Source: Candidatus Acidiferrum sp.
Lineage (GTDB): Bacteria > Acidobacteriota > Terriglobia > Acidiferrales > UBA7541
Assembly: GCA_036522195.1 (NCBI GenBank)
Contig: DATDGF010000089.1
Location: forward strand, 13,673-77,672
Direction of reading: 5' to 3'
DNA length: 64,000 nucleotides
Below, in pieces: positions 2,432-55,627 of the stretch. Below the pieces are notes generated by a model. The model was not told where the DNA came from. It made no database searches and was given only the letters and a program-made list of their open reading frames with translations. The translations under genes and the position numbers were made by a program. The first letter of the stretch is position 1. Each line of letters starts with the position of its first letter.

Positions 2432-3826
2432 CTACTCGTGCCCGCCGCCGAGTTCTCGAACAATCGAGCCGACAAACGATTTAGCATCCCCGAACAGCAT
2501 CAGTGTCTTGTCGAGGTAGTAGAGGGGGTTCTCAATGCCCGCAAAACCTGCCCCCATGCTGCGCTTGATCACCATCACGGTGCGCGCCTTGTCCACATCC
2601 AGAATGGGCATGCCGAAAATCGGGCTCGCAGCGTCCGTGCGCGCTGCCGGATTGGTGACGTCATTCGCGCCGATCACCAGGGCCACGTCCGTTTGCGGAA
2701 AATCCCCGTTGATTTCGTCCATGTCCAGCAGCTTGTCGTAAGGAATGTCTGCCTCCGCCAGCAAGACGTTCATATGTCCCGGCATGCGGCCGGCGACTGG
2801 ATGAATTCCAAATTTTACGTCGACACCGCGCCTCGTCAGCGCGTCGTACAGTTCGCGCACTTTGTGCTGGGCTTGCGCAACGGCCATTCCATAACCCGGT
2901 ACGATGACCACCTTGTTCGCCGCCGCAAGAATCGCCGCCGCTTCTTCCGGCGTCGCGCTGCGTACTGGCCGTGCTTCCTGCTTGCCCGCAACAGCGGCTT
3001 GCTCCTGCCCAAACGCGCCAAAGAGCACGTTCGAAAAGGAGCGGTTCATCGCTTTCGACATGTTCACCGAGAGAATGAGGCCCGATGCTCCGTCCAACGC
3101 GCCCGCAATGATCAATAGCTTGCTGTCCAGCACAAAGCCCATCGCCGCTGCAGATAGTCCAGCGTAGGAATTCAGTAACGAGATGACCGTTGGCATATCG
3201 GCGCCGCCGATGGGAATGATCATCATCACACCAAACAAAAGAGGTATGCCCACAATGAATGGAAAGAGATAGGCCTTTTCGGGATGTGCCACCAACATTC
3301 CCGCGATGACGATCGCCACGCCCAGCAGTCCGAGATTGACGAGGTTCTGCCCCTTGTAGGTAATCGGCCGCTGCGGCAAAAGTTCCTGCAATTTTCCCGC
3401 GGCCATCAAACTTCCGGTAAACGTCAGCGAACCGAGAATGACCTCCAGTGAGAGCACGCCCATCATGAAGCGCGGCACATCCGGCGTCCGCAGATAAAAC
3501 TCCGCGGTTCCAACCAGTGTCACGCACAGCGCGCCGAACGCGTGGCTCAGCGCCGTCCGTTGCGGTACGGCGGTCATCGCCACTTTGCCGAGCGGCACTC
3601 CGATAATCGTCCCCAGCACCAGGGCGATTACGATCCATTTGTATTCGACGATGCCGCGGTTCAACAAGGTTCCGGCAATCGCCAGCAACATTCCCAGTTC
3701 GCCGGCAAATACTCCGCGTCGCGCCGTCTTCGGAGAGCTCAGCCATTTCAAGGCCAGGATAAAAAGCGCGGTGGCAATTAGGTAGGTAACTTCGATGATC
3801 TGTTCCAGGCCGGGTACGTTTCTCAT
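2432..3826 (-). CDS. pntB: NAD(P) transhydrogenase beta subunit
   Basis: GGADMPTVISLLNSYAG, VPGYGMAVAQAQH, HPVAGRMPGHMNVLLAE, GANDVTNPAA motifs. Confidence 0.97.
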   Translation of the reverse strand: MRNVPGLEQIIEVTYLIATALFILALKWLSSPKTARRGVFAGELGMLLAIAGTLLNRGIVEYKWIVIALVLGTIIGVPLGKVAMTAVPQRTALSHAFGALCVTLVGTAEFYLRTPDVPRFMMGVLSLEVILGSLTFTGSLMAAGKLQELLPQRPITYKGQNLVNLGLLGVAIVIAGMLVAHPEKAYLFPFIVGIPLLFGVMMIIPIGGADMPTVISLLNSYAGLSAAAMGFVLDSKLLIIAGALDGASGLILSVNMSKAMNRSFSNVLFGAFGQEQAAVAGKQEARPVRSATPEEAAAILAAANKVVIVPGYGMAVAQAQHKVRELYDALTRRGVDVKFGIHPVAGRMPGHMNVLLAEADIPYDKLLDMDEINGDFPQTDVALVIGANDVTNPAARTDAASPIFGMPILDVDKARTVMVIKRSMGAGFAGIENPLYYLDKTLMLFGDAKSFVGSIVRELGGGHE

Positions 3827-4128
3827 GGTTTCTTCGGCCCGCTGGCTTTGAACATTCTCAGCATGCGGTCAGTGATCAGGAAGCCACCGACGATGTTGCT
3901 GGTGGCCGCCACGATGGCAATCGTTCCCAGAATTTTCGCAAGCGTTGCGCCGTGCGCATGGTATTCACCCGCGAGCAAGATCGCTCCCACGACGGCGATG
4001 GCGTCGAGCGCGTTCGTCAGCGACATCAGCGGCGTATGCAAGAGCGGCGAAACCCGGCGTATCACTTCGAACCCAATGAACGCGGCCAGCATGAAAACGT
4101 ATAGGCTGGTCAGCAGGTCCAGCTTCAT
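3823..4128 (-). CDS. pntAb: NAD(P) transhydrogenase alpha subunit part 2 (membrane)
   Basis: LHTPLMSLTNAL and NIVGGFLITDRML motifs; 4-nt overlaps with both neighbours. Confidence 0.95.
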   Translation of the reverse strand: MKLDLLTSLYVFMLAAFIGFEVIRRVSPLLHTPLMSLTNALDAIAVVGAILLAGEYHAHGATLAKILGTIAIVAATSNIVGGFLITDRMLRMFKASGPKKP

Positions 4129-5312
4129 GACTTTGCCACCTCCTGGGCATCCGCGACCAAGGGAGGGAGGGAGAAGAACTCTCGTACGCGCGCGTTGACC
4201 ACTTCCCCGCCCCGCGTCAGCATCGTCTCTCGAATAATTTCATCTTCCTTTAGTTGAAGCTTTCCCTCCTTGACCAGATGCACCAGAAATGCGCTCACGT
4301 TCCGCGCGTACATCTGGCTCGCGTGATACGGCACGGTGCTCGCCAGGTTGAACCACCCGATGATCGTCACTCCGTACTCCACCACGATTTCTCCCGGCCG
4401 CGTCAATTCGCAATTCCCTCCGCGCTCGCCCGCCAGGTCTACAATCACGGAGCCCGGCGCCATGCTTGCCACCATCTCCTTAGTCACCAGAATTGGCGGC
4501 TTTTTTCCAGGGATAACCGCAGCGCTGATCACCACATCGCTTTCCGCCACAACTTTCCCGAGCAAATCCCGCTGTCGCTTGTAAAAAGTCTCATCCTGCG
4601 CGCGCGCGTACCCGCGTGCATCTTCCGCATCTTTGGCCTCAATCGGAAGTTCAACGAACCGCCCGCCCAGGCTCTGCACCTGCTCCTTCGCTGCGGGCCG
4701 CAAATCGTAAGCGGAAGCCACTGCGCCCAGTCGCCGCGCCGTCGCGATCGCCTGCAACCCCGCAACTCCCGCGCCAATCACGAGCACGCGGCCCGGAGTA
4801 ATTGTCCCCGCCGCCGTCGTAAGCATCGGGAAAATCCGCGGCGAAGTATCCGCCGCGAGCACCACCGCTTTGTAACCGCAGATCGTCCCCATCGAGGAAA
4901 GAACGTCCATGCTCTGCGCGCGCGTCGTTCGCGGCATCAATTCCACCGAAAACGAAGTCACGCCTTTCGAGGCGATTTCCTGAATGGTTTCAAGCGACCC
5001 CAGCGGCCGCAGAAATCCGATGAGCACCTGATAGTGCTTGAAAAACGGCACGTCCGCTTTGCCGGTCTTGTCATTCGAACCATAACAAAGAATCTGCAGC
5101 ACGATATCAGCGGCGCGAAACACTTCCGCGCGCTCCGCAATAATCCTTGCGCCTTTGGCCGTGTAGTCGGCGTCCGGATAACCCGCCGCCATTCCCGCTC
5201 CCGCTTCCACTACCACTTCCAACCCCGCTTTTGTAAGATTGGGAATCGCCGCGGGCACCAGGGCCACACGTCGCTCTCCAGGAAAACTCTCTCGCGGAAC
5301 TCCGACGATCAT
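4125..5312 (-). CDS. pntAa: NAD(P) transhydrogenase alpha subunit part 1 (dI)
   Basis: MIVGVPRES..ERRVAL start, RAQSMDVLSSM, GAGVAGLQAIA, DLAGERGGNC. Confidence 0.95.
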   Translation of the reverse strand: MIVGVPRESFPGERRVALVPAAIPNLTKAGLEVVVEAGAGMAAGYPDADYTAKGARIIAERAEVFRAADIVLQILCYGSNDKTGKADVPFFKHYQVLIGFLRPLGSLETIQEIASKGVTSFSVELMPRTTRAQSMDVLSSMGTICGYKAVVLAADTSPRIFPMLTTAAGTITPGRVLVIGAGVAGLQAIATARRLGAVASAYDLRPAAKEQVQSLGGRFVELPIEAKDAEDARGYARAQDETFYKRQRDLLGKVVAESDVVISAAVIPGKKPPILVTKEMVASMAPGSVIVDLAGERGGNCELTRPGEIVVEYGVTIIGWFNLASTVPYHASQMYARNVSAFLVHLVKEGKLQLKEDEIIRETMLTRGGEVVNARVREFFSLPPLVADAQEVAKS

Positions 5313-5548
5313 AAAGCTCTCTCCGCTTCTGAAAACGACGACTGTTGTTGGGAATTGCAATCGGTCGGGAAAATAAATTCAATCCATTTCAAGAAAAGGC
5401 CAACCCTCCGCGCGCGCAAACGGTTGAGATCATACACTCATAAGCGCCAGTTCTGTTAGGAGAGCTCACCGTGCTCGGAGCCGGGAGTCCTACTGATTGC
5501 CAATTAGCTCTCTCTGGGATTTCCTGGCATCTTCTATCACACCTAAAC

Positions 5549-11260: not shown

Positions 11261-12850
11261 ATGTCGGATGTATGGAGACAGTTCGAGGGGCAGATCGTCG
11301 ACGAGGAGTTCCCGCTGAAGCAGCTTCTGGCGGGTGATGATCACAGCGCGGTATTTCTGACGCAGCGCGGAGATTCGCAGCCGCAAAACGCGGTGATCAA
11401 GCTAGTTCCCGCGGATCCCGCGACTTCCGACCTGCAACTCTCCCGCTGGCGTCTTGCCGCACAACTTTCTCATCCCAACTTGTTGAAGATTTTTGATTTT
11501 GGACGTGGGCGGCTGGAGGACACCAATTTTCTCTACGTCGTGCTGGAGTTTGCGGAAGAAGACCTTTCGCAAATTTTGCCGCAGCGCGCACTGACGGCGG
11601 CGGAAACGCGGGACATGCTGGGGCCGGTCCTGGATGTTCTGGTTTATCTCCACGCCAAAGGCCTCGTTCACGGACATATAAAACCTTCCAACATTCAGGC
11701 TACGGCCGATCAACTGAAACTTTCGAGCGACACGCTTGCGTCGATCGCGGAGTCGCAGGCGCCGACGACGCGGCCCAGCCTGTATACCGCGCCGGAAGTC
11801 GCGGTCTCCGGACTCACGGCTGCCAGCGATGTGTGGTCGCTGGGCGTGACGCTCGTCGAAGTGCTCACGCAGCGCTTGCCGGTTTTGCCGGCGGACGCGC
11901 AATCTGATCCGGTGGCGCCGGATACGATTCCGCAGCCGTTCCTGGACATTACGCGTCACGCTCTGATGCGCGAGCCGAAGCGCCGCTGGACGATTGCTGA
12001 AATCGCTGCGCGCATGAATCCCACAGCGGTCGCGGCCGCGGCGGGGCAATCGATTTCGCCGCTGGCTGTGCCGCTTTCGTCGGTGCCTGCGGTTCCCGCA
12101 GCCAAGCTGCAAACGCCGAAGTATGATGCGCCTGCGCCGAAGGCGCACATACCGCGCGCGCCGGGAACGACTCCGACAAAGCAAACTCTTGTTCTGCCCA
12201 ACTACGCGATTCCGGTGTTCGCGGTCTTGCTGGTGCTCGTTGCAATAATCGCGCTGCCGAAAATACTGGGGCATCGCGCGGAGCCTTCGACTTCTGCAGC
12301 GAATGCAGCGGCGCAGCCCGCGTCAAAGCCAAAACCTGTGGAACAGCCAGCGCATCGCGATACCTCCTCAGCAACACAGCCGACGGCAAAAAATTCCCCT
12401 AAAGCTGCTACCGAGAAAAAATCTGCGCCGCCGGAAAAACTGGTTGCGGCCCCTGCGCAACCTGTGAATGCCGCGCCAGCGACGGCGGCTCTGCGCACTG
12501 ACACGTTCCCGTCAGCCAACGCGCCGAAATCATCGAGCGCTTCCGCGGCTCACGGTGAAGTTCTCGACCAAGTATTGCCCGAGGTTTCCGGCAAAGCGCG
12601 CGGGACGATTCAGGGCAAAGTGCGCGTCAGCGTGCACGTCCACGTGGAGCCCGCGGGAAATGTTTCGCAAGCGGAACTTGATGCACCCGGGCCGAGCAAA
12701 TATTTTGCAGACCTGGCGATCCAGGCCGCGAGGCGCTGGGAATTCACGGCACCGGAAGTGGGCGGCCACAGCGTGCCCAGCGAATGGGTCATCCGGTTCG
12801 AGTTCACGCAAGCCGACACGAAAGCGTTCCCCGCACAAAAGACTCCTTAG
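11261..12850 (+). CDS. Membrane protein: Ser/Thr kinase-like (degenerate) domain, TM, TonB C-terminal domain
   Basis: AVIK, HGHIKPSNI, YTAPE, DVWSLG; TM YAIPVFAVLLVLVAIIAL; Pro/Ala linker; IQGKVRVSVHVHV..G.V..FADLAIQAARRWEF (TonB_C). Confidence 0.85.
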   Translation: MSDVWRQFEGQIVDEEFPLKQLLAGDDHSAVFLTQRGDSQPQNAVIKLVPADPATSDLQLSRWRLAAQLSHPNLLKIFDFGRGRLEDTNFLYVVLEFAEEDLSQILPQRALTAAETRDMLGPVLDVLVYLHAKGLVHGHIKPSNIQATADQLKLSSDTLASIAESQAPTTRPSLYTAPEVAVSGLTAASDVWSLGVTLVEVLTQRLPVLPADAQSDPVAPDTIPQPFLDITRHALMREPKRRWTIAEIAARMNPTAVAAAAGQSISPLAVPLSSVPAVPAAKLQTPKYDAPAPKAHIPRAPGTTPTKQTLVLPNYAIPVFAVLLVLVAIIALPKILGHRAEPSTSAANAAAQPASKPKPVEQPAHRDTSSATQPTAKNSPKAATEKKSAPPEKLVAAPAQPVNAAPATAALRTDTFPSANAPKSSSASAAHGEVLDQVLPEVSGKARGTIQGKVRVSVHVHVEPAGNVSQAELDAPGPSKYFADLAIQAARRWEFTAPEVGGHSVPSEWVIRFEFTQADTKAFPAQKTP

Positions 12851-31251: not shown

Positions 31252-31365
31252 GAGAGTGGAACTTCGGGCTCTGTGCAACGAGGTCCCGCGAACCCCGCCA
31301 GGCCCGGAAGGGAGCAACGGTACCGGGATCGCCTCGGGTGCCGCAGATCACCCGAAGTTCCTCTC
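31252..31365 (+). ncRNA. ffs: Signal recognition particle RNA (4.5S); core about 31264-31354
   Basis: Conserved GAACCCCGCCAGGCCCGGAAGGGAGCAACGGT domain IV; long closing stem; classic position upstream of dnaX. Confidence 0.95.
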
Positions 31366-31561: not shown

Positions 31562-33361
31562 ATGAGCTACCAAGTCATCGCGCGCAAGTGGCGGCCGCAG
31601 ACGTTCAAGGATCTTGTCGGCCAGCAGCACGTGACGGAAACGCTGGCGAACGCGATCAAGAACGACCGCGTGGCGCATGCGTATATTTTTTCCGGCGCGC
31701 GGGGCGTGGGAAAAACGACGGCGGCGCGAATCCTGGCCAAGGCCATGAATTGCGTGAACGGGCCAACAGCGGAGCCCTGCGGAGTGTGCGATTCGTGCAA
31801 AGAGATTACGGCCGGGAATTCGCTGGACGTGATTGAGATCGACGCGGCCTCGAACCGCGGGATCGACCAGATTCGCGAACTGCGAGAAATGGTGCGGTAT
31901 GCGCCGGCAGCTTCGAGAAGAAAAGTCGTAATCCTGGATGAAGCGCACATGCTGACGGGCGAGGCGTCGAACGCGCTGTTGAAGACGCTGGAGGAGCCGC
32001 CGGACCGCGTGATTTTCGTGATGGCGACAACGCAGCCGGAGGATCTGGCGGATACGATCCGGTCGAGGTCGCAACACTTTCATTTTCGGGCGCTGACGTT
32101 TGCGGAAATTACGGGAAGGCTGGAAGAGATCGCGCGCAAAGAAAATCTGAAGATCGAGCCAGGCGCGATGGCGGTGATTGCGCGGATGGCGGAGGGCAGT
32201 TTGCGTGACGCGCTGTCGCTGCTGGAGCAGGCGCGGGCGTATTGCGGCGACACGATTCCAGACAAGGAAGTGCGCGAGCTGTTGGGCGTGGTGCCGGATG
32301 ACGCGCTGGAAGAGCTGGTGGGCGCGATCGCGTCGGGATCGGCGGACCGGGCGATGGGCCTGGTGCACACGTTTCAGAAAGAGGGACGCAACCTGCAACA
32401 TTTTTGCCGGGAAGCGATCCGTCACATGCGGAATCTGCTGATTGCGCGGGTGTGCGGTGCGGATTCGGAGTTGATTGCGGCGACGCCGGACCAACGGCCG
32501 GGCCTGGCGAAAGCGGCGGCGCAGTTCAGCGAAGAGGACCTGACGCGATTTTTTCAAATTTTATTGCAGACGGATGATGACTTGCGCCGGAAGCCCGATC
32601 CGCGCGTGCACCTGGAAATGGGATTGTTGCGGCTGATCAATGCGTCGCGGCTGGCGCCGCTGGAAGAGTTGCTGGCGGAATTGAAGAGCGGGGCGCCAGG
32701 CGGCGTGACCAATTCGGGAATGGCGCGGGGCGCGACGCAGTCTGCTTCTGCTGTACCGGGGCAGGTGCGTCTTGGAAGTTCGCCAGCGGCGACAACTGGA
32801 TTTGTATCACCGGGAAAAAGTTCTGTTCCAAATTTCGCGGCTGCGACGGCCACGGCACCTGCTCTTGCAGCACCGATTCCTGCACCGATGGCGGCAAAGA
32901 TCGAACGTGAAGAAGAAAAAACCGTTTCAGCGGCGAAGAGCAATGGCGCAGTAGCGGAATTGAGTGGGATTAGCGTGGAGCAAGTGGTGGAAATCAAAAC
33001 GGCGATCCAGGCACAGCAGAAATTTTTGGGAGAGCTGGTCGAGCAGAGCAGCAGGTGGGAGCTCGAAGGAGCGGAATTGCGAATTTATTTCCCAGCGGAG
33101 AAACGGCCGTTCGCGGAAATGCTCGAAGGTAGAGATTCGCTGGAGAAGATCCGTAGCATATCGAGCAAGACTCTGGGCCGAGCAGTACGCGTCTGTGCTA
33201 AACTCGAAGGAGTTGCAGCGGTAGCCGCGCCTTCGTCGCGCGCGGCGAGCGTCACCCAGGAATTGAGCGCGCAATTTGAGCGCGATCCGATGGTGCGATC
33301 GATACTGCAACGCTTCGGAGGAAAAATTTCCGAAGTGAAACGGCGGCAAGAGGAATCCTGA
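31562..33361 (+). CDS. dnaX: DNA polymerase III subunit gamma/tau
   Basis: YQVIARKWRPQTF, GARGVGKTT, DVIEIDAASNRG, ILDEAHML, LLKTLEEPP. Confidence 0.98.
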   Translation: MSYQVIARKWRPQTFKDLVGQQHVTETLANAIKNDRVAHAYIFSGARGVGKTTAARILAKAMNCVNGPTAEPCGVCDSCKEITAGNSLDVIEIDAASNRGIDQIRELREMVRYAPAASRRKVVILDEAHMLTGEASNALLKTLEEPPDRVIFVMATTQPEDLADTIRSRSQHFHFRALTFAEITGRLEEIARKENLKIEPGAMAVIARMAEGSLRDALSLLEQARAYCGDTIPDKEVRELLGVVPDDALEELVGAIASGSADRAMGLVHTFQKEGRNLQHFCREAIRHMRNLLIARVCGADSELIAATPDQRPGLAKAAAQFSEEDLTRFFQILLQTDDDLRRKPDPRVHLEMGLLRLINASRLAPLEELLAELKSGAPGGVTNSGMARGATQSASAVPGQVRLGSSPAATTGFVSPGKSSVPNFAAATATAPALAAPIPAPMAAKIEREEEKTVSAAKSNGAVAELSGISVEQVVEIKTAIQAQQKFLGELVEQSSRWELEGAELRIYFPAEKRPFAEMLEGRDSLEKIRSISSKTLGRAVRVCAKLEGVAAVAAPSSRAASVTQELSAQFERDPMVRSILQRFGGKISEVKRRQEES

Positions 33362-46897: not shown

Positions 46898-49090
46898 ATG
46901 GCTGCGCGGTTGAACCCAATTGAAAGGGGTGCGATGGCCCTTCGTCGAGGAATTTCCGCTTTATCTTGCCTGTTTGCGATGATGCTGTTTGTTTGCGCCG
47001 CTCCGCTACGCGCACAAGCGCCCCGGCCGGTGACGTTTCTCGCCCAGCATTACGACGTTTCAGCCACACTGGACGCCATTGGGCAATCGCTTTCTGCCAC
47101 TGCCAAGATTGATTTCAAGGCCGTGGAAGCCTCCAGCAGCGTGCGCGTGGAACTGCATCCGAATCTCATCGTTAAGGAAGTAAAAGGCGCGGATGGCAAA
47201 CCGCTGACATTCGAACGCGACAATCAGAATCCTCTGATTGTCATCGTGCAACTCCCCACGCCGGTGGCGACGGACGGCAAGCTGACCCTGACGTACACCT
47301 ACGCAGGCCTGCTCTTCAATGAAGAAAACAGCCCGGTGCCGGGTAACCGTGTGGCCTCCATCAACAAGGACGGCGCGTATTTGCTGCTTCCCGCGCGCTG
47401 GTTTCCGCTCACAAATTATCCGGCGAACCGTTTCACAGCAACATTCCGGCTGAATGTGCCGGACTCGTTTGCAGTGGCCGGTACCGGCAAGGCCGGCGCT
47501 CCGACGCCCATGGCGGGAAGAAACGCCGTCGAGGGCGGACGGCTTCTCTATACATTCGAATGCAAGAATCCGGCGCCTAACGGGACGTATGTGGCTGGCA
47601 ATCTGCAGCTCAATCCAAAGCAGGCGGAAGGAATCAGCGTCGCAGTCTATGCTCCACGAGCGGCGTCCGCCAATGCGGAAGATTTTGCAACAGACGTGGC
47701 GCGGTCGGTGATTATTTTCTCGGACATGTTTGGGCCTCTGCCCGATCCGTCAATGACCATCATCCAGTTGCCGGATGGAACGCTTCGCGATTTTGCGGCT
47801 CCCGGGATCCTGCTGCTCAGCCAGCGCAGTTGGGATCCGAAAGCGAGCGACCGAACGATCGCCAAGCTGGTGGCCGCGCAATGGTGGGGTGTACAAGTTC
47901 TTCCTACGACGCCGGGCGATGTGTGGATCACCGACGGATTGGCGCAATATTCCGAAATTCTTTACGCCGAACAGAATGCCGGCAGAGAAGCCGGGCTGAA
48001 GACCGTGGATGAATTCGCGGTAGGCGCGCTGATGTACGAAGAAGCTGCGCCGGTGGCGCAGGCCGCGCGGCTGGCTCCTTATTCTCCGGACTACCGTTCC
48101 GTGGTGCTGAACAAAGGCGCGATGATCTTTCACATGTTGCGCGCGATGATGGGAGACGCAGCATTCAAAATGGCGCTGCGTGATTTCTACTTTCAATACG
48201 CGGAGAAAAGCGCGCGCATCGAGGACTTTGAACGAATTGCCGAGCGTCGTGAGAATGCTTCGGTAAAGCCGCCGCAGGAGCCGGCCAATCTGAGAAGCTT
48301 TTTTGCGCAGTGGCTGAACTCCACGGGCGTGCCGGAATTTACGCTTGAGTATGTTGTGTACCGGACGCCGAAAGGATTCCGCGTCGTCGGGAAAATCAAA
48401 CAGCCGCTGGACACCTTCCGCATGCCGGTGGAGCTGCGCATCGACACAGAGGGAAATCCGGAATTAAAGACCATTGATGTGATCGGGACCGAGTCGGGCT
48501 TTACGGTGGAAACGTTTGGCCGGCCAAAGCCGGGTGGGATAAAAATTGATCCCAACAACTTGATTCTCAAGGGCAGCGTTTCACTGCGCGCGCGCGCCGC
48601 GGTCGCGCGCGGCGAAGAGCTCGCCGAGCAGGGCCGCTTCTACGACGCCATCGCGCAATACCAGCGCGCGCTCGCCATTCAGCCAAACCGGCCGCTGGCT
48701 AATTTCCGGATGGGCGAAGCGTTCTTTTATCAGAAGAACTATCAGGCAGGGGCCAACGCGTTCCGCGAAGCCCTACAGACCGTGCCGGAGCCGTCGGAGA
48801 AATGGACGGAAGTCTGGAGCCGCATCTATCTCGGAATGATTTTTGATCTGTTGGGGCAGCGCGAACGCGCCGTCAACGAATATAGCAAGGCCAAGCAAAC
48901 GAACGATGATACCGGCAACGCGCAGCAGATCGCAGAAGCTTATCTGAAGAAACCGTATACGGAAGGCGGAGTCCTGATTGCAACGCCCACGGCGACAGAG
49001 CCGAAACCCAAACCAGCATCGACCGTGCCGGTGCCGGCTTCCGGCGAAAGGCCGGTGCTGAAAAAACCGAATCCTTACGCTGGCAGGTAA
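46898..49090 (+). CDS. M1 aminopeptidase-fold protein lacking zinc ligands + C-terminal TPR
   Basis: HYDVSATLD, WFP, WITDGLAQY, NKGAMIFHMLR, FFAQWL; HExxH site reads KLVAA; TPR helices at the C-terminus. Confidence 0.85.
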   Translation: MAARLNPIERGAMALRRGISALSCLFAMMLFVCAAPLRAQAPRPVTFLAQHYDVSATLDAIGQSLSATAKIDFKAVEASSSVRVELHPNLIVKEVKGADGKPLTFERDNQNPLIVIVQLPTPVATDGKLTLTYTYAGLLFNEENSPVPGNRVASINKDGAYLLLPARWFPLTNYPANRFTATFRLNVPDSFAVAGTGKAGAPTPMAGRNAVEGGRLLYTFECKNPAPNGTYVAGNLQLNPKQAEGISVAVYAPRAASANAEDFATDVARSVIIFSDMFGPLPDPSMTIIQLPDGTLRDFAAPGILLLSQRSWDPKASDRTIAKLVAAQWWGVQVLPTTPGDVWITDGLAQYSEILYAEQNAGREAGLKTVDEFAVGALMYEEAAPVAQAARLAPYSPDYRSVVLNKGAMIFHMLRAMMGDAAFKMALRDFYFQYAEKSARIEDFERIAERRENASVKPPQEPANLRSFFAQWLNSTGVPEFTLEYVVYRTPKGFRVVGKIKQPLDTFRMPVELRIDTEGNPELKTIDVIGTESGFTVETFGRPKPGGIKIDPNNLILKGSVSLRARAAVARGEELAEQGRFYDAIAQYQRALAIQPNRPLANFRMGEAFFYQKNYQAGANAFREALQTVPEPSEKWTEVWSRIYLGMIFDLLGQRERAVNEYSKAKQTNDDTGNAQQIAEAYLKKPYTEGGVLIATPTATEPKPKPASTVPVPASGERPVLKKPNPYAGR

Positions 49091-49120
49091 GAGAGCGGCA
49101 GCTGAAGTGGGAACAGCGGA

Positions 49121-50239
49121 CTATGAGATTCCCGCCAGGCCCGTGAGCTGCGGAGTGGTTGTACCCTTTTGCTGAACCAAAACCTGGAATCGCTCGCCCA
49201 TTCCTTCCGGATAAATTAACGTCTTGAGCTGCAACCGGGCGCGGGCGCGCTCCACTTCTGTCTGACCCTCATCGTAGAGATCAGCGAATTCATTGCCACG
49301 GCCGAGCGCGAGCAGGAAAGCGGTTTGCGAAACGAGACCTGCGGTCTCCAGGCCCGTACGTTTTCCCCATGTTTCAAGGGCAGTGAAATTGACATGCGCG
49401 GTCAGGTCCTGCTCGCCGGGTGAATCGTAATAATTTTCCGTCGCGCGATGGTCACGGTAGGCCAGCAAAGTTCCGCGCATATGATGGTCGTCGAATAGCT
49501 CCGGGGCGCGGTGTCCGTAGTCGACGGTGAGAACATAGCCGCGTTCGAGGCGGCGGCCCACTTCCGTGATCCAGTCGCAGGCCTCGAGCCCTGCCTCGGC
49601 TTGCTGGCCGTCGTGAAGAATGATCCCCTGCACCGCAAAGTACTCGGTGATCGCGCAAGTGAAAAGCTCGGCGACGCAATCCACAAATCCGCCGTCGCTT
49701 ACGTTTACGAAGATTTCTTTCAGCGCGCCATCTTCCATTACGACGCGGTGGACAGGCAGCGCATCGGCCAGTTCGTTCGAGAAAAGGCAGCCCGCAGGGA
49801 TATGCGGCGGAATTTCAACGGAGGCCTCGAAGTGGCCCGCATCGGCGTGGCGCTTTGCGCGGGCTGATGACTGCTCGCGGCGCGCTGCCGAGCGCTCCAC
49901 CGCGACATAGCGCAGCGGTTCATAAAATGCGGGAAGTCTCGATTCGCTGAAATCGAGAATATGCGCTGCAAGCCGCCCAACACCTGCACCGGCTTCGACA
50001 AGAGTAAATTCCGATGGACGGTCAAGGTATTCCCACATTTCGCTGAATTGCCGCGCCAGCAACCGTCCAAAGATGGGATGAACATCCACGCTTGTGTAGT
50101 AATCGGCGAAGCGCGTGGATTCCGTCTTGCTGTAATAGCCGTGGACCGGGTGATACAGGCATTCGCGCATGAAATCGGCGAATGCGACGGGCCCATAGCG
50201 GCGGATACGATCGGCAAGCAATTCGGCGAGCGGCGTCAC
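49121..50239 (-). CDS. SAM-dependent methyltransferase, MidA/NDUFAF7 family
   Basis: FMRECLYHPVHGYY, VEAGAGVG, SNELADALP, DYG, GEQDLTAHVNF; GTG start coupled to the macro gene stop. Confidence 0.9.
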   Translation of the reverse strand: MTPLAELLADRIRRYGPVAFADFMRECLYHPVHGYYSKTESTRFADYYTSVDVHPIFGRLLARQFSEMWEYLDRPSEFTLVEAGAGVGRLAAHILDFSESRLPAFYEPLRYVAVERSAARREQSSARAKRHADAGHFEASVEIPPHIPAGCLFSNELADALPVHRVVMEDGALKEIFVNVSDGGFVDCVAELFTCAITEYFAVQGIILHDGQQAEAGLEACDWITEVGRRLERGYVLTVDYGHRAPELFDDHHMRGTLLAYRDHRATENYYDSPGEQDLTAHVNFTALETWGKRTGLETAGLVSQTAFLLALGRGNEFADLYDEGQTEVERARARLQLKTLIYPEGMGERFQVLVQQKGTTTPQLTGLAGIS

Positions 50240-50793
50240 GCGCCTTTGGCTCCCGCGGTGTCGGCGGCGGGTTCGATCTGAATCTGCTTCCACATCCGCG
50301 TGAAAATCCCTTCCGCGACTTCATCGAACAGCACGAAATAAATCGTTTCGAGCGAGGTTTCGCCTTTCAGGTGACGTGCGGCTTCACGTAGCATAATCTC
50401 TGCGCACTCTTTCAGCGGAAAGCCGGCGATGCCGGTGCCTACCGCAGGAAACGCAATGGATTTCAGGCCGCGCTCGTCGGCGATCCTCAGAGAGTGGGCC
50501 GTGGAATGCCGCAATGTGTCCGCACTGGTTTTCCCACCCAATTGCATGCTGGCGGAGTGAATCACGAAGCGCGCTTTCAGTTTTCCGCCGGTGGTGATGG
50601 CCGCATAGCCAACCGGAATGCTGCCGATAGAATCGCATTCGCGCTGAATCGCGTCTCCACCCTTGCGGCGGATGGCGCCGGCAACTCCCGCGCCGAGTAC
50701 CAAGTCATTGTTCGCCGCGTTGACGATGGCGTCGGTGTCCATCTCAGTTAAGTCGCCCTGCTGAATTACGATTCTTTCTGCCAGAGATTTCAT
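50236..50793 (-). CDS. Macrodomain protein (YmdB-like)
   Basis: GDLT..DAIVNAAN..GAGVAGAI, SIAFPAVGTGIAG. Confidence 0.93.
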   Translation of the reverse strand: MKSLAERIVIQQGDLTEMDTDAIVNAANNDLVLGAGVAGAIRRKGGDAIQRECDSIGSIPVGYAAITTGGKLKARFVIHSASMQLGGKTSADTLRHSTAHSLRIADERGLKSIAFPAVGTGIAGFPLKECAEIMLREAARHLKGETSLETIYFVLFDEVAEGIFTRMWKQIQIEPAADTAGAKGA

Positions 50794-50819
50794 CGTGCGT
50801 TCATTCCTGCCTCGTATGG

Positions 50820-51713
50820 CTAGGCTTTCTCTTCTGCCGCACTTTCTTGCGTGTAATTGTAAACACCGCGTCCGGTCTTTCGGCCTAGGCGACCTTCCTG
50901 AACGTATCGGCGCAACAAGGAATTGGGCCGGTATTTTTCGCCGAGGGTGCGCTGCAGATATTCAAGAATATTCAGGCGGACATCGAGGCCAACGAGATCA
51001 ACAAGTTCGAACGGTCCCATGGGATGGCTCAGTCCCAGCTTCAGCGCTTTGTCGATGTCCCTTGCCGAAGCGACGCCTGCTTCGAGCATATCGAAGGCTT
51101 CGTTACCGATGAGCGCGTTGACGCGCGTAGTGATGAAACCGGGCGATTCGTTGACCAGAACTACTTCTTTGCCCATGCGGCCCGCGACCTCTCGGCAAGT
51201 GGCGACTGTTTCATCGGATGTATGCGGCGTCCGCACGAGTTCGATGAGCTTCATTTTCGGAATGGGGTTGAAGAAATGCATGCCTACACAGCGATCACGC
51301 GAAACAGTGACGTCGGTGAAATCCGTGATCGAAAGAGAAGAAGTATTGCTCGCGAAAATCGCTCCCGTCTTGGCGAACTTGTCGAAGATGGTGAAGAGTT
51401 CGAGCTTCATTTCCAATTCTTCCGGGACGGCTTCGATGATGAGATCTGCCTCGCGGATGGCATCCTCGACGTTGCTGGCGGTGGAAATCAAGGCGAGTGC
51501 TTTGTCGTGCGCCGCGGCCTCCACTTTTCCGCGCGTAACGCCTTCCTCGAAGGCTTGCCGGATCCAGCTGACCGCTTGCTCCAGCCTGGGCCGTGAAACA
51601 TCCTCCAGGACGGTTAGGTAGCCGCCGAACGCAGCCGCGTACGCGATTCCTCGCCCCATCGTTCCGGCGCCAATCACCGCGATGGTCTTTACATCCAACC
51701 TTTGATCTCCCAT
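50820..51713 (-). CDS. 3-hydroxyacyl-CoA dehydrogenase (Hbd/PaaH-like)
   Basis: GAGTMGRG, IEAVPE, SNTSSL, GMHFFNP, HPMGPFEL, GRLGRKTGRG. Confidence 0.93.
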   Translation of the reverse strand: MGDQRLDVKTIAVIGAGTMGRGIAYAAAFGGYLTVLEDVSRPRLEQAVSWIRQAFEEGVTRGKVEAAAHDKALALISTASNVEDAIREADLIIEAVPEELEMKLELFTIFDKFAKTGAIFASNTSSLSITDFTDVTVSRDRCVGMHFFNPIPKMKLIELVRTPHTSDETVATCREVAGRMGKEVVLVNESPGFITTRVNALIGNEAFDMLEAGVASARDIDKALKLGLSHPMGPFELVDLVGLDVRLNILEYLQRTLGEKYRPNSLLRRYVQEGRLGRKTGRGVYNYTQESAAEEKA

Positions 51714-51723
51714 CGGAGAATCA

Positions 51724-52077
51724 TCACTTCACCAGTTTCTTGAAGGCTTCCTCATCAAAACCAAGCACCATTTCCGATCCACGCAGCACCACAGGCCTGC
51801 GGATGAGATTCGGATTCTTGGCCAAGAGCTTGATCGCTTCCGCGCGCGCAGGTGGATGCTCTTTCATATTTCGGGCGCGATAGAGCTCATTTCGCGTATT
51901 CAGAAACTCCTTATAATCGCGGGTTCCCATCAGTTCATCGAGTTCGGCTTCGGAAAGCCGCTCTTTGTCCAAATCGCGCGATTCAAGTTCGGCGCCAAGT
52001 TCCAGCAAGAGACCTCTTGCCTTGCGGCACGTGGTTCACGTCGGCTTCTGGAGAAACTTGATCTTCGCCTTTGGCAA
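51724..52077 (-). CDS. ArsC/Spx/YffB-fold protein, probable selenoprotein (U-x-x-C, Sec14)
   Basis: AAGGAG RBS, TTG start; MPKAKIKFLQKPT-[TGA 52038-52036]-TTCRKARGLL..NPNLIRRPVV..VLGFDE; SECIS-like hairpin follows. Confidence 0.88.
52000..52035 (-). promoter_or_regulatory. Bacterial SECIS element
   Basis: Minus strand after UGA: ACCACGUGCCGCAAG-GCAAG-AGGUCU-CUUGC; apical AGGUCU as in E. coli fdhF SECIS. Confidence 0.8.
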
Positions 52078-52138
52078 GCCATCTCCTTCGATGTAGAAGC
52101 ACGCCGTCTCGAGGGCGCCCTCACGAAAAATACTGCGT

Positions 52139-52462
52139 CTAATACCGTGGAACTTTGGGATCGATCTCCAGGGACCAGCGCTCGATTCCGCCAGCCAGAG
52201 ATTTCGCCTTTTCGATGCCCTGAAAGCGCAGCCACGCCGCTGCATCCAGGCTGCGCATGCCATGGTGGCAATAGCAAATCAGTTCGTCGACATCCGGAAG
52301 CATCTGTAAGTTGGCCGCCAGCGACCCCAGCGGAACTAGTTTCGCGCCCTCGATACTGCAGAGCTGGTGCTCCCAGGGTTCGCGCACATCAATAAGAACC
52401 AGCTTTTCGCCGCGGTCGAGCCGCGCCTTCATATCTGCTGGCGTTATCTCCAGTTCATCCAT
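52139..52462 (-). CDS. Rhodanese-like domain protein
   Basis: LIDVREPWE, CYCHHGMRS, LAGGIERW. Confidence 0.9.
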   Translation of the reverse strand: MDELEITPADMKARLDRGEKLVLIDVREPWEHQLCSIEGAKLVPLGSLAANLQMLPDVDELICYCHHGMRSLDAAAWLRFQGIEKAKSLAGGIERWSLEIDPKVPRY

Positions 52463-53233
52463 CTATCTTCCCTTCCAGATTGGTTGGCGCTTTTCCAGAA
52501 ATGCGCGGACGCCTTCTTGTGCGTCGTGGGTCTTCATCAGCCCGGATAAGTATACGCGTTCTACTTCCTGGAGTTGTTTCTCAAAGTCAATGACATGCAG
52601 CCGCCACAAGGTTTTCCTCGTCAAGTGAAGAACCGCTGGGCTCAACGCGCCTAATTCCACAAGGAGACCGTCCAATGCGGCGCGAAGCTCGTGATCGGCA
52701 ACGACACGCGTGATCAGGCCGAGACGGTGCGCCTCGCCGGCACTGATTTGCTGGCCCGTCAGAAGGAGATGTGTGGCCGCGCGCATGCCAATGAGCTTCG
52801 GCAGTGTCACCATTGCGATGGGTGGGAAGCAACCTAACTTGATTTCCGGTTGTCCAAACTGCGCGGACTCTGTGGCCAGCACAAAATCGCAGAAGGTGGC
52901 CAGCTCCATGCCCCCGCCGAGGCAATATCCGTGTACGGCGGCGATTTTCAAGCAGCCGGCTTCGGCAAGGCGGCGAAACACCGCGTGAAACGCGGACAAC
53001 ATTTTCTCGACGCGCTCAGGAGCGTGGTCTGCAATCTCCGCTCCGGCGGAAAAGGCTTTAGGACCTGCACCTTGAAACACAACGAAATCACAGTTGGGTA
53101 TCGCGCGCTCCAGAGCCGTATCCAGCGCTTCCATCATCGGAATGTCCAGAATATTAAGCGGCGGTCGGGCAAGCGTAACCCACGCCGTGCGATCATCAAG
53201 TAGAAGTTCAACGGTTTCTTGCGGGTTGGTCAC
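52463..53233 (-). CDS. Enoyl-CoA hydratase/isomerase (Dch-like crotonase)
   Basis: AFSAGAEI, HGYCLGGGMELA, FGQPEIKLGCFP. Confidence 0.85.
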   Translation of the reverse strand: MTNPQETVELLLDDRTAWVTLARPPLNILDIPMMEALDTALERAIPNCDFVVFQGAGPKAFSAGAEIADHAPERVEKMLSAFHAVFRRLAEAGCLKIAAVHGYCLGGGMELATFCDFVLATESAQFGQPEIKLGCFPPIAMVTLPKLIGMRAATHLLLTGQQISAGEAHRLGLITRVVADHELRAALDGLLVELGALSPAVLHLTRKTLWRLHVIDFEKQLQEVERVYLSGLMKTHDAQEGVRAFLEKRQPIWKGR

Positions 53234-53260
53234 AATCGTTGGGCACTTCTATGGAGAATG

Positions 53261-54076
53261 CTATTTCCCCTCAAACTTCGGAGCGCGCCGCTCGAAAAAC
53301 GCGCGAATCCCCTCGTTACAATCTTCGGAGAGATAGCAGCGAATCTGTTCCTGAACTTCTTTCTCGAGGGCCCGCGAGAGCTCCTTCGCCTCACTGCCAA
53401 ACAGCGCCTTCTTCACCGCGCGGATCGGGAGCGAAGGACCGTGCGCGATTTTCTCCGCTAGCGTCTTCACTTCCGCTTCGAGCCGTGTCGAAGGGACGAC
53501 GTGATTTACGATTCCCATGGCCAGCGCGGTTTTCGCGTCAATCATGTCGCCGGTGTAAAAAAGTTCGGCCGCTCTCGAAGGGCCTATGAGTTGCGGCAAG
53601 AAATGAGTCCCGCCGAAATCTGGAAACAGGCCGACTTTTGCAAAATTCTGTCCAAACGTCGCTTCTTCCGCGGCGATGCGAATGTCCGCGGCCAACGCGA
53701 TATTCATGCCCGCGCCCGCCGCCGCCCCATTTACCGCTGCAATTACCGGCTGCGGCATCGTGCGCATGTTCAACACCAATTGCATTCCTGCGCGAAGCAG
53801 CGGTTCCAAGTCCTTCATCGTGCCACTCTGGTGGCCCTTGCCCAGCGTCGCGAGATCCCCTCCCGCGCAAAAAGCGCGGCCCGCTCCGGTGATCACCACC
53901 ACGCGAACGGCGCTATCCGCCGCGAGACGCCCGAGGGCCTCGTTGAGGGCGATGCCAAGTTCATTGTTCAAGGCATTCAACCGGTCGGGGCGGTTCAGCA
54001 CCAGCGTGGCGATGCCTCCGTGCTTCTGTTCCAGAACTACAGGTCCTTCTTGCGCGGATTGTGTGGCGTTACTCAT
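53261..54076 (-). CDS. Enoyl-CoA hydratase/isomerase (PaaG-like)
   Basis: RAFCAGGDL, VNGAAAGAGMNIALAAD, VGLFPDFGG. Confidence 0.88.
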   Translation of the reverse strand: MSNATQSAQEGPVVLEQKHGGIATLVLNRPDRLNALNNELGIALNEALGRLAADSAVRVVVITGAGRAFCAGGDLATLGKGHQSGTMKDLEPLLRAGMQLVLNMRTMPQPVIAAVNGAAAGAGMNIALAADIRIAAEEATFGQNFAKVGLFPDFGGTHFLPQLIGPSRAAELFYTGDMIDAKTALAMGIVNHVVPSTRLEAEVKTLAEKIAHGPSLPIRAVKKALFGSEAKELSRALEKEVQEQIRCYLSEDCNEGIRAFFERRAPKFEGK

Positions 54077-54088
54077 GGTTCATCAGTC

Positions 54089-54619
54089 CTAGCGGCCCTT
54101 AATTTCCCGATCTTTCTCGATGCGTGTGACGAGTTGGGCGAGCTTTCGAAAATGCCGCAACTTCTCGCTCCTGCCTTGGGCGTTTGAACCGCTGGTGGAA
54201 GGCAGGACGTAGACGCGCGCGCCATAGAGCAGCTCTTTCTGCATTCCATACTTGCATTTGCGCTGGGAAAACTGCTCGTAGGTCAGCTTGCCGTTGAAGG
54301 CCACCACGTGAGGAGCAAATTCTTCGAGCTTCTGTGAAAGTACAATGCGCCCTTCCGCATAGTCTTCTCGTTTGAGCTCTTCGATGCCTTTGGTGGGGCG
54401 CTTCACCAAATCGGTGAGTCCGATTCCGAATTCGATGACGCGCTTGTCGTCGTGATAATCGAATGGCTCCGGCACCACTCCGCCCTCATAAAGCATCGGC
54501 CAGAACTGGTTCGCGCGTCCTGCATAATAATGGCCCACGCGCACCGAGGACTCGCTCGGATTGCAACCGACGATCACCAGTTTCATGCCTTTGCGGAGAT
54601 GATCTGGAAGAGTTCGCAT
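54089..54619 (-). CDS. mug: Mismatch-specific uracil/thymine DNA glycosylase
   Basis: IVGCNP, GHYYAGRANQFW, GIGLTDLVKR, LPSTSGSN. Confidence 0.92.
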   Translation of the reverse strand: MRTLPDHLRKGMKLVIVGCNPSESSVRVGHYYAGRANQFWPMLYEGGVVPEPFDYHDDKRVIEFGIGLTDLVKRPTKGIEELKREDYAEGRIVLSQKLEEFAPHVVAFNGKLTYEQFSQRKCKYGMQKELLYGARVYVLPSTSGSNAQGRSEKLRHFRKLAQLVTRIEKDREIKGR

Positions 54620-54955
54620 TACCTCAGCTTACTACGCCTTTCCGTTTGCGCTGCTTTCCCTTGGTGCGGCCCGCGCGCTTTCAGCATCGGCCGCGAGGAT
54701 TTTTCTGGTGTCTTCGCCGGTAGTAGGCCGGCAATCGGACCAACTCATTATCCCGCAAAGACTTACGAAGGCAAGCCTTCCGGTGGGAGCCGGCGCGGGA
54801 TGGCCTTCGGTTCGAGACTTTAGGTGGCCAGAAAACCGTTGTCAAGACCCTGCATCCCAAGTCTGTAACTCAATTCATTTTTCTGAATCTGACAGTCGGC
54901 ATCGTCATCCAAACAGGGGGACGTCTGAGGTGTAGCGGTGCTCTGTGGTACCTTT

Positions 54956-55627
54956 ATGGCTGCGAAAGCGAGGCAGTGGCCCTTCCTGGACCCCTATCAT
55001 CCGTTGAACGCACCGAACCCTCATCGCTTGCCTTCCACCGTTGCACGGGAGGATGAACACCTGCTTGTGGCTGCAGCCAAGCGGGGCGAAACGGCTGCGT
55101 TTGAAGAGCTTGTAAGCCGCTACGAGAAAAAGATCTTTCGCCTGACGATGAACATCACCCGCAATCGCGAGGATGCGGAAGACGCCATGCAGGATGCGTT
55201 TCTCAAGTCCTACGCGCACTTGAAGGATTTTCAGGAAGATTCGCGTTTCTATACCTGGCTGGTGCGCATCGCCGCGAATGAAGCGCTGATGCGCCTGCGC
55301 AAGCGCCGTCCCAACCAGTTCTCTCTGGATGAGCCGATCGAAGGCGATGACGACCTGATGCCGCGGGAGCTCGAAGACTGGGGTCCAAGCCCGGAGCAGC
55401 GATTCGCGCAAACCGAAATGCACGAAATCTTGTCCGAGGTTATCGACAAGCTGGAACCCGATTTTCGGGTTGTTTTCGTTTTGCGCGACGTGGAAGAACT
55501 TTCCACCGAGGAAACCGCCAAGACTCTCGGCATCTCAGTATCGGCGGTAAAATCGAGGCTCTTGCGCGCGCGGCTCAAACTCCGGCAAAGACTGGATCGT
55601 TATTTTCGGCAGGGTGGAACCAATTGA
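54956..55627 (+). CDS. ECF sigma-70 factor
   Basis: AFEELVSRY, DAEDAMQDAF, FYTWLVRIAAN, VSAVKSRLLRAR. Confidence 0.93.
   Translation: MAAKARQWPFLDPYHPLNAPNPHRLPSTVAREDEHLLVAAAKRGETAAFEELVSRYEKKIFRLTMNITRNREDAEDAMQDAFLKSYAHLKDFQEDSRFYTWLVRIAANEALMRLRKRRPNQFSLDEPIEGDDDLMPRELEDWGPSPEQRFAQTEMHEILSEVIDKLEPDFRVVFVLRDVEELSTEETAKTLGISVSAVKSRLLRARLKLRQRLDRYFRQGGTN

Follow-up and report, generated by a model that had tools for sequence, protein, structure and literature searches.

A probable selenoprotein of the ArsC/Spx superfamily, annotated as a 94-residue fragment, in soil Acidobacteriota

We analysed a stretch of 64,000 nucleotides from Candidatus Acidiferrum sp. (Acidobacteriota; contig DATDGF010000089.1, positions 13,673 to 77,672 of the forward strand), hereafter the window, which has a G+C content of 58%. 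On its minus strand, at 51724–52077, lies a gene of the ArsC/Spx superfamily that is interrupted by an in-frame TGA; a hairpin resembling a bacterial selenocysteine insertion sequence (SECIS) follows the TGA within the coding sequence. The explanation that we favour, and that the comparative evidence makes very probable, is that SelB binds the hairpin, that selenocysteine (Sec) is inserted at UGA-14, and that Sec14 and Cys17 form a redox pair cycling through a selenenylsulfide. Gene callers report only the part of this gene that lies downstream of the TGA, and the same fragment is found in the databases for many related contigs.

Direct reading of the minus strand bore out the positions given in a first-pass annotation of this DNA for the start of the gene and for its interruption. 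A Shine-Dalgarno (SD) sequence, AAGGAG (52083–52088), stands 5 nt upstream of a TTG start codon (52077–52075), and the in-frame TGA, codon 14, occupies 52036–52038. The frame reads LPKAKIKFLQKPT-TGA-TTCRKARGLLLELG..., the motif after the TGA being TTCRKARGLLL. Beyond codon 14 it runs for 103 further codons (about 100 had been proposed) to a TGA stop at 51726–51724, adjoined by a second TGA at 51723–51721. With a single interrupting TGA, the predicted selenoprotein gene comprises 117 codons including UGA-14, the length put forward earlier. Among relatives the start codon is found at the same position, as ATG, GTG or TTG. The predicted resolving cysteine, Cys17 (TGC, 52027–52029), occupies the second Cys position of the U-T-T-C motif and is invariant in homologues; in 89 distinct TGA genes its codon is TGC in 86 and TGT in 3. 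The mechanical list of open reading frames (ORFs) shortens the gene, as had been remarked, to a 94-aa ORF at 51724–52008, which starts at the TTG of codon 24, inside the hairpin. This ORF is an artefact of a stop at the UGA and a restart at TTG-24. Since TGA terminates 22 of the 65 likely ORFs in the window, the selenoprotein gene included, the genetic code is standard and the genome is not recoded, in agreement with the first-pass view.

A protein search returned more than 4,500 homologues. The full-length ones are about 117 aa long and carry CTTCRKA where the window protein has U-TTCRKA, so that the TGA column corresponds to Cys; the TGA had indeed been placed at the first Cys of the ArsC/Spx CxxC motif, and Spx reads PSCTSCRKAR at the same place. 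Database entries of 94 aa, 91–100% identical to the window protein, all begin at the same internal Leu; these are the footprint of gene callers halting at the TGA. We then compared 102 related loci at the nucleotide level, 22 from genomes and 80 from metagenomes. Nearly all of the 22 genome loci bear the label Acidobacteriota (gp2, 'Candidatus Acidoferrum/Acidiferrum', Terriglobia). In 19 of these 22 loci, which come from species-representative genomes, both the TGA and the hairpin are present, at 68–85% protein identity. Over the whole set, TGA stands at codon 14 in 97 of the 102 loci, and each of the 97 has the hairpin GCAAGA-[GGTC, AGTT or GGTT]-TCTTGC; G at loop position 2 and U at position 3 are constant throughout. 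The other five loci are distant forms with a Cys codon (TGC or TGT). They have unrelated sequence at the site of the hairpin, with the peptide AKAYLE where the TGA genes encode ARGLLL or ARSFLL. Conservation of the TGA and of the hairpin in relatives, the comparison on which the earlier proposal had been made to depend, is thus extensive, and the residue that replaces the TGA codon in the remaining loci is Cys.

The pattern of synonymous variation separates constraint on the RNA from constraint on the protein. In the 89 distinct TGA genes there are 43 four- or six-fold degenerate codons at which the amino acid is at least 90% conserved. Synonymous entropy is zero only at the consecutive codons 20–24 (GCA AGA GGT CTC TTG), which make up the hairpin, while the remaining 38 of the 43 all vary synonymously, with a mean of 1.30 bits. 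Because synonymous variation at codons 20–24 is zero, the constraint there acts on the RNA and not on the protein. The opposite is seen 5' of the TGA, where at codons 8–13 of the TGA genes the amino acids are kept at 83–100% and the third positions vary. This amino-acid constraint, together with conservation of the start codon, indicates that the 13 N-terminal codons are translated in the same frame and as part of the same protein as the codons that follow the TGA.

The hairpin itself (52004–52021, minus strand, overlapping codons 19–25) was identified by folding and by its comparative invariance. Its arms are GGCAAGA and UCUUGCU with an apical loop GGUC, and it starts 16 nt after the UGA, as the first-pass annotation had it. 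The core stem GCAAGA/UCUUGC pairs 52020–52015 with 52010–52005 around the loop at 52014–52011, and a G-U pair lies at its foot. The likeness of the apex to the SECIS loop of Escherichia coli fdhF, also pointed out earlier, was checked against the E. coli MG1655 record, in which the fdhF UGA is codon 140. The apex A[GGUC]U is identical in the two. Counted from the U of UGA, it lies at nt 25–28 in the window gene and at nt 22–25 in fdhF, an offset of exactly 3 nt that places it one codon further from the UGA. Loop positions 2 (G) and 3 (U) correspond to G23 and U24 of fdhF, the bases that contact SelB. The range of UGA-to-hairpin distances considered is that of bSECISearch. In every TGA locus loop position 2 is G and the stem is 6–7 bp, which agrees with a published rule for bacterial SECIS elements that calls for G at position 1 or 2 of the apical loop (PMC13582414). 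When the window was scanned for a second selenoprotein, as an in-frame TGA with a GU-loop hairpin, only the site at 52038 was left as coding-like with a strong hairpin.

Two close relatives carry TGC at codon 14. In one of them (L107, 2035–2085) the hairpin loop is GGCC, the U having been lost by a synonymous change of GGT to GGC; in the other (L108, 115–160) the AGUU hairpin is intact. From their sequences these are probably recent Sec-to-Cys conversions in which the SECIS is decaying or relict. SECIS remnants of a similar kind are known from other selenoprotein families (PMC13582414). Apart from these, two database translations of the ARGLLL type have another residue at the Sec position, namely Gly in P0010 and Arg in P0061, the latter with a frameshifted C-terminus. 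They could be real GGA and CGA variants, sequencing errors or, where UGA was read as Gly, gene calls made with an alternative code.

Several results weigh against the selenoprotein explanation, some of them concerning the hairpin and others the decoding machinery. The folding energy of the 71-nt region is no better than that of shuffled sequences (z = −0.03); the hairpin is therefore unremarkable thermodynamically, and its support rests on the comparative data. A search of the whole window with Rfam at the gathering threshold returned a signal recognition particle (SRP) RNA alone and no SECIS family, and a permissive scan of 51950–52080 gave only noise (mir-72, sR35); short bacterial SECIS elements are not covered by Rfam. 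There are no compensatory base changes in the stem, which never varies: among 64 distinct regions it is unchanged but for a replacement of G-U by A-U at the foot. RNAalifold proposed a lower helix of four pairs, which is weak and has mismatches and one isolated double change, and we rejected this lower SECIS helix as unconvincing. The hairpin also contains an SD-like sequence, AAGAGG, 4 nt before the TTG of codon 24, so that its conservation could in principle serve re-initiation in part. As for the machinery, ARAGORN found no tRNA(Sec) in the 64-kb window or in any of the related loci. Pfam models for SelA, SelB and SelD had no match among the 20 largest ORFs, and tblastn with the E. coli MG1655 SelA, SelB and SelD proteins, run against the window and 103 related loci, gave no match. 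The related loci searched for Sec machinery amount to 1.07 Mb in total.

Re-initiation is the core of one rival explanation, in which the TGA is a true stop that ends a 13-codon leader, translation restarts at TTG-24 by way of the SD-like AAGAGG, and the hairpin is a translational regulator of a 94-aa protein. That ORF is present in the sequence and is the version found in database annotation, and the conserved 16-mer would span both the SD-like element, 4 nt before TTG-24, and the start codon. However, the AGUU loop variant (GCAAGAAGTTTCTTGC) breaks the GAGG core and is nevertheless conserved within its own sub-clade, and an SD sequence with a start codon leaves unexplained why the GCA codon and the spacer never vary. 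The supposed leader is constrained at the amino-acid level, its 13 codons aligning residue by residue with strand 1 of the Cys homologues, and a 94-aa product would be without strand 1, most of helix 1 (9 of 12 residues) and the whole active site. The distant Cys forms, with sense codons at the TGA site, lack both the SD-like element and the TTG. On this evidence we regard re-initiation as highly improbable. The idea that the TGA arose just once from TGC or TGT, as a nonsense mutation in a pseudogene or as an error of sequencing or assembly in this contig, can be dismissed with near certainty. A single base separates TGA from TGC and TGT, and P0010 (Gly) and P0061 (Arg) differ at this position, but the TGA occurs in 97 independent contigs from many samples, the 19 species-representative genomes included, which refutes a one-off origin. 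The reading frames, moreover, are intact, with purifying selection on both sides of the TGA.

What these arguments leave untouched is the identity of the amino acid inserted, for the sequence data do not discriminate between Sec and Cys. The UGA might be recoded in a SECIS-dependent manner by a tRNA(Sec)-like tRNA(Cys) (selC*/tRNA-ReC) acting with SelB or a paralogue, in which case the product would have an ordinary CxxC motif. In several anaerobic phyla such tRNAs read UGA as Cys when a SECIS is present (PMC5389517, PMC13582414), and among the tRNAs of Acidobacteria are unusual allo-tRNAs with a possible role as suppressors (PMC5389517). Yet selC* has been reported from Firmicutes, Thermodesulfobacteria, Nitrospirae and Proteobacteria and not from Acidobacteria, and co-occurs with a full Sec machinery (PMC5389517); neither the window nor the related loci examined yielded a Cys-inserting tRNA of the selC* type. 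It is also hard to rationalise why a costly UGA and its hairpin should be kept in 97 of 102 relatives merely to encode Cys, because a change of one base gives TGC, as in L107 and L108. We therefore consider insertion of Cys very unlikely.

The 117-aa product, with U replaced by C, matches the Pfam family ArsC (PF03960) with 64 bits against a cutoff of 24, and Glutaredoxin more weakly. Its LxRRP motif aligns with that of Spx. The assignment to the ArsC/Spx family made in the first-pass annotation is upheld. Each of the following NCBIfam models stayed below its cutoff. The best of all NCBIfam models was TIGR01617 (Spx/MgsR, the 'arsC_related' subfamily), just under its cutoff with 70.6 bits against 75.05 for the protein with the same replacement. 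The Spx subfamily model NF002459 gave 54.9 bits (cutoff 123) and the Spx equivalogs NF009210 and NF009885 gave 29.8 (159) and 26.7 (152). The glutaredoxin-type arsenate reductase model TIGR00014 gave 37.5 bits (106.05), the YffB-type reductase model NF008107 gave 39 (121), and NF041106, 'ArsC family (seleno)protein' (ArsC_rel_Se_1), gave 34.2 (85). The best sequence matches in the PDB are Spx proteins (3L78, E-value 1.3e-12; 1Z3E) and the uncharacterised ArsC-family protein 3GKX.

An AlphaFold model of a Cys homologue 79% identical to the window protein (pLDDT 88.7) has strand 1 at residues 6–10 and helix 1 at residues 15–26. Residue 14 thus lies at the N-terminus of helix 1, right after strand 1, and, judged on this model, the 94-aa product would have lost the active site and strand 1 together with residues 15–23, the first nine of the twelve that make up helix 1. 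In Foldseek the model matches Spx, YffB and ArsC about equally (TM 0.75–0.82), and the fold therefore leaves the function undecided. The protein thus belongs to the ArsC/Spx superfamily, within which it comes closest to the Spx/MgsR branch, and is not a demonstrable orthologue of either Spx or ArsC. The earlier wording, 'selenium redox protein or Spx-like redox-sensing regulator', was an apt hedge: the Spx/MgsR model comes closest, but the tests specific to Spx failed.

If the gene is decoded as we propose, SelB, the Sec-specific elongation factor, would bind the hairpin at nt 18–35 after the UGA, with its GGUC loop closed by an A-U pair, and would deliver Sec-tRNA(Sec) to the UGA, giving read-through in place of termination. 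The product would be a 117-residue thioredoxin-fold protein with the active-site motif Sec14-Thr-Thr-Cys17. Sec14 would be the nucleophile, at the N-terminus of helix 1 and in the place of the attacking Cys of CxxC proteins. Sec14 and Cys17 would form a selenenylsulfide, so that the protein would alternate between a reduced (selenol/thiol) and an oxidised (Se–S) state. We infer accordingly that SelB and tRNA(Sec) (selA, selB, selC, selD) are encoded in the genome, that selenium is actually inserted, and that the Se–S redox cycle operates.

Least certain in this explanation is what the protein does in the cell. Two possibilities appear about equally likely: a redox-sensing, Spx-like regulator that binds RNA polymerase, or a small protein that serves the rhodanese encoded upstream as reductase or acceptor. 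Thioredoxin resolves the persulfide of the E. coli rhodanese GlpE, and as a reductase or acceptor the window protein would resolve the rhodanese persulfide in the same way. The more specific proposal, that in a dominant group of soil Acidobacteriota the protein is a true functional counterpart of Spx (a Sec redox sensor that binds RNA polymerase) or a dedicated selenol acceptor of the rhodanese in a sulfur/selenium relay, is in our estimation rather unlikely.

The rhodanese lies directly 5' of the ArsC-like gene (52139–52462, minus strand); it is a single-domain protein (Pfam Rhodanese) with the active-site loop CHHGMRS. A rhodanese is found at this place in 21 of the 22 motif-bearing genome loci, the matched part ending 13–88 nt before the start of the ArsC-like gene. 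The exception is a Cys form (L020), which has no rhodanese match; a rhodanese also adjoins the gene in additional Cys-form contigs that we examined. This arrangement marks the rhodanese as a possible functional partner. Because all loci share the whole syntenic block, the adjacency may reflect common descent and not function.

The block as a whole (50236–54619, minus strand) is preserved in synteny in most, if not all, of the related loci that we examined. In order, it consists of a mug-type G/U mismatch DNA glycosylase (54619–54089), enoyl-CoA hydratase in one or two copies (54076–53261 and 53233–52463 in the window, the second copy being present in some genomes only), the rhodanese, the ArsC-like gene, a 3-hydroxyacyl-CoA dehydrogenase (51713–50820) and a macro-domain protein (50793–50236); a methyltransferase comes next. 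No ars genes were found near the ArsC-like gene, and a scan of 49000–55000 for promoters and terminators gave counts at chance level. Three loci with this block and an Acidobacteriota-like gene order (L015, L018 and L021) come from metagenome-assembled genomes labelled Dongiaceae, Candidatus Cybelea and Candidatus Eisenbacteria; to judge from the gene order, they may be cases of mis-binning or of a transfer of the block.

Elsewhere in the window, the small SRP RNA returned by Rfam (RF00169, 71.6 bits; 31262–31360, plus strand) lies directly 5' of dnaX (31562–33361, plus strand), which encodes the gamma/tau subunit of DNA polymerase III, an ordinary housekeeping arrangement. A 529-aa protein (11261–12850, plus strand) joins an N-terminal Ser/Thr protein kinase to a C-terminal TonB_C domain, an unusual pairing. 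Genes for NAD(P) transhydrogenase occupy 2432–5360 on the minus strand, with beta at 3826–2432, a small ORF at 4128–3823 and alpha at 5360–4125.

The practical consequence of these results lies in annotation. For many contigs of soil Acidobacteriota, JGI and NCBI list a fragment of 94 aa as 'arsenate reductase', where the predicted true product has 117 residues and a Sec in its active site, and NCBI's curated ArsC selenoprotein model, NF041106, misses the clade. Selenocysteine is probably used by a widespread soil lineage of Acidobacteriota (gp2, 'Acidoferrum'), and for soils selenoprotein surveys are scarce (PMC9312934). For the study of SECIS decay, a compact system is offered by the hairpin with its fdhF-type apex and by the natural Sec-to-Cys revertants, in which the loop U has been kept or lost. 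Should the protein prove to be a Sec sensor that binds RNA polymerase, it would be the first selenoprotein transcription factor. The finding changes neither the known mechanism of Sec decoding nor the known range of selenoprotein families; it helps with annotation and with charting where selenium is used in soils, and will come as no surprise to a selenoprotein specialist.

Of the systems with which the window gene can be compared, the SECIS of fdhF is the nearest to its hairpin. The two share the A[GGUC]U apex and a position within the coding sequence directly 3' of the UGA. They differ in that the fdhF element has a bulged U, whereas the upper stem of the window hairpin is a perfect helix of 6–7 bp and its lower stem is weak or absent. 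At the level of the protein, the Spx proteins of Bacillus subtilis and Streptococcus mutans (...PSCTSCRKAR...) align with the UTTC and RKA motifs of the window protein, which has Sec in place of their first Cys. Arg60 of Spx corresponds to Arg62 of the window protein, an LxRRP motif is common to both, and the Cys homologues of the window protein are named 'Spx/MgsR family' by NCBI. Gly52 of Spx, a contact to the C-terminal domain of the RNA polymerase alpha subunit, stands opposite a gap in the HMMER alignment; the alignment of this loop is uncertain, so the result is weak. B. subtilis Spx has a C-terminal degradation tail. The window protein ends at residue 117 without such a tail, the matched Spx chains having 131–132 residues, and its host belongs to the Acidobacteriota, that of Spx to the Firmicutes. 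With ArsC (E. coli R773, PDB 1I9D; TIGR00014) and YffB (PDB 1RW1; NF008107) the window protein shares the fold and the N-terminal position of the nucleophile. The ArsC motif is C-x-x-S, with a single catalytic Cys, as opposed to U-x-x-C in the window protein.

ArsC-like selenoproteins have been on record since 2006–2008 (PMC1794560, PMC2398784), a class that the first-pass annotation also mentioned, and among them are proteins with the U-x-x-C motif. They were described from Desulfotalea and Desulfuromonas (PMC1794560) and, as 'Arsenate reductase 1 (UxxS)' and 'Arsenate reductase 2 (cd03032, UxxC)', from GOS metagenomes (PMC2398784). Both of the latter types appear in the table of a 2022 review (PMC9312934), and the deep-Sep supplement lists an 'Arsenate reductase' with the sequence ...YPQUTTCQRARGWL..., which has the identical U-T-T-C tetrad (PMC12013277). 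The published proteins and the window protein belong to the same superfamily (COG1393/PF03960), have Sec as the first residue of an N-terminal CxxC motif and about 115 residues, and were predicted by the same logic of Sec/Cys pairs and SECIS elements. The window protein shares only 30% identity with the published UTTC example and 22% with the 'arsenate reductase-like' representative MDE3003982.1, and it therefore belongs to a different subfamily. The earlier reports concern Deltaproteobacteria and marine metagenomes, whereas the clade of the window protein comes from soil Acidobacteriota and stands in public databases as a fragment of 94 aa. The Sec trait does occur in Acidobacteriota (PMC1794560), for instance in Occallatibacter riparius, and the three selenoproteins given for Occallatibacter do not include an ArsC-like protein (PMC12013277). 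We conclude that the window gene represents a new, misannotated clade of the already described ArsC-like U-x-x-C selenoproteins.

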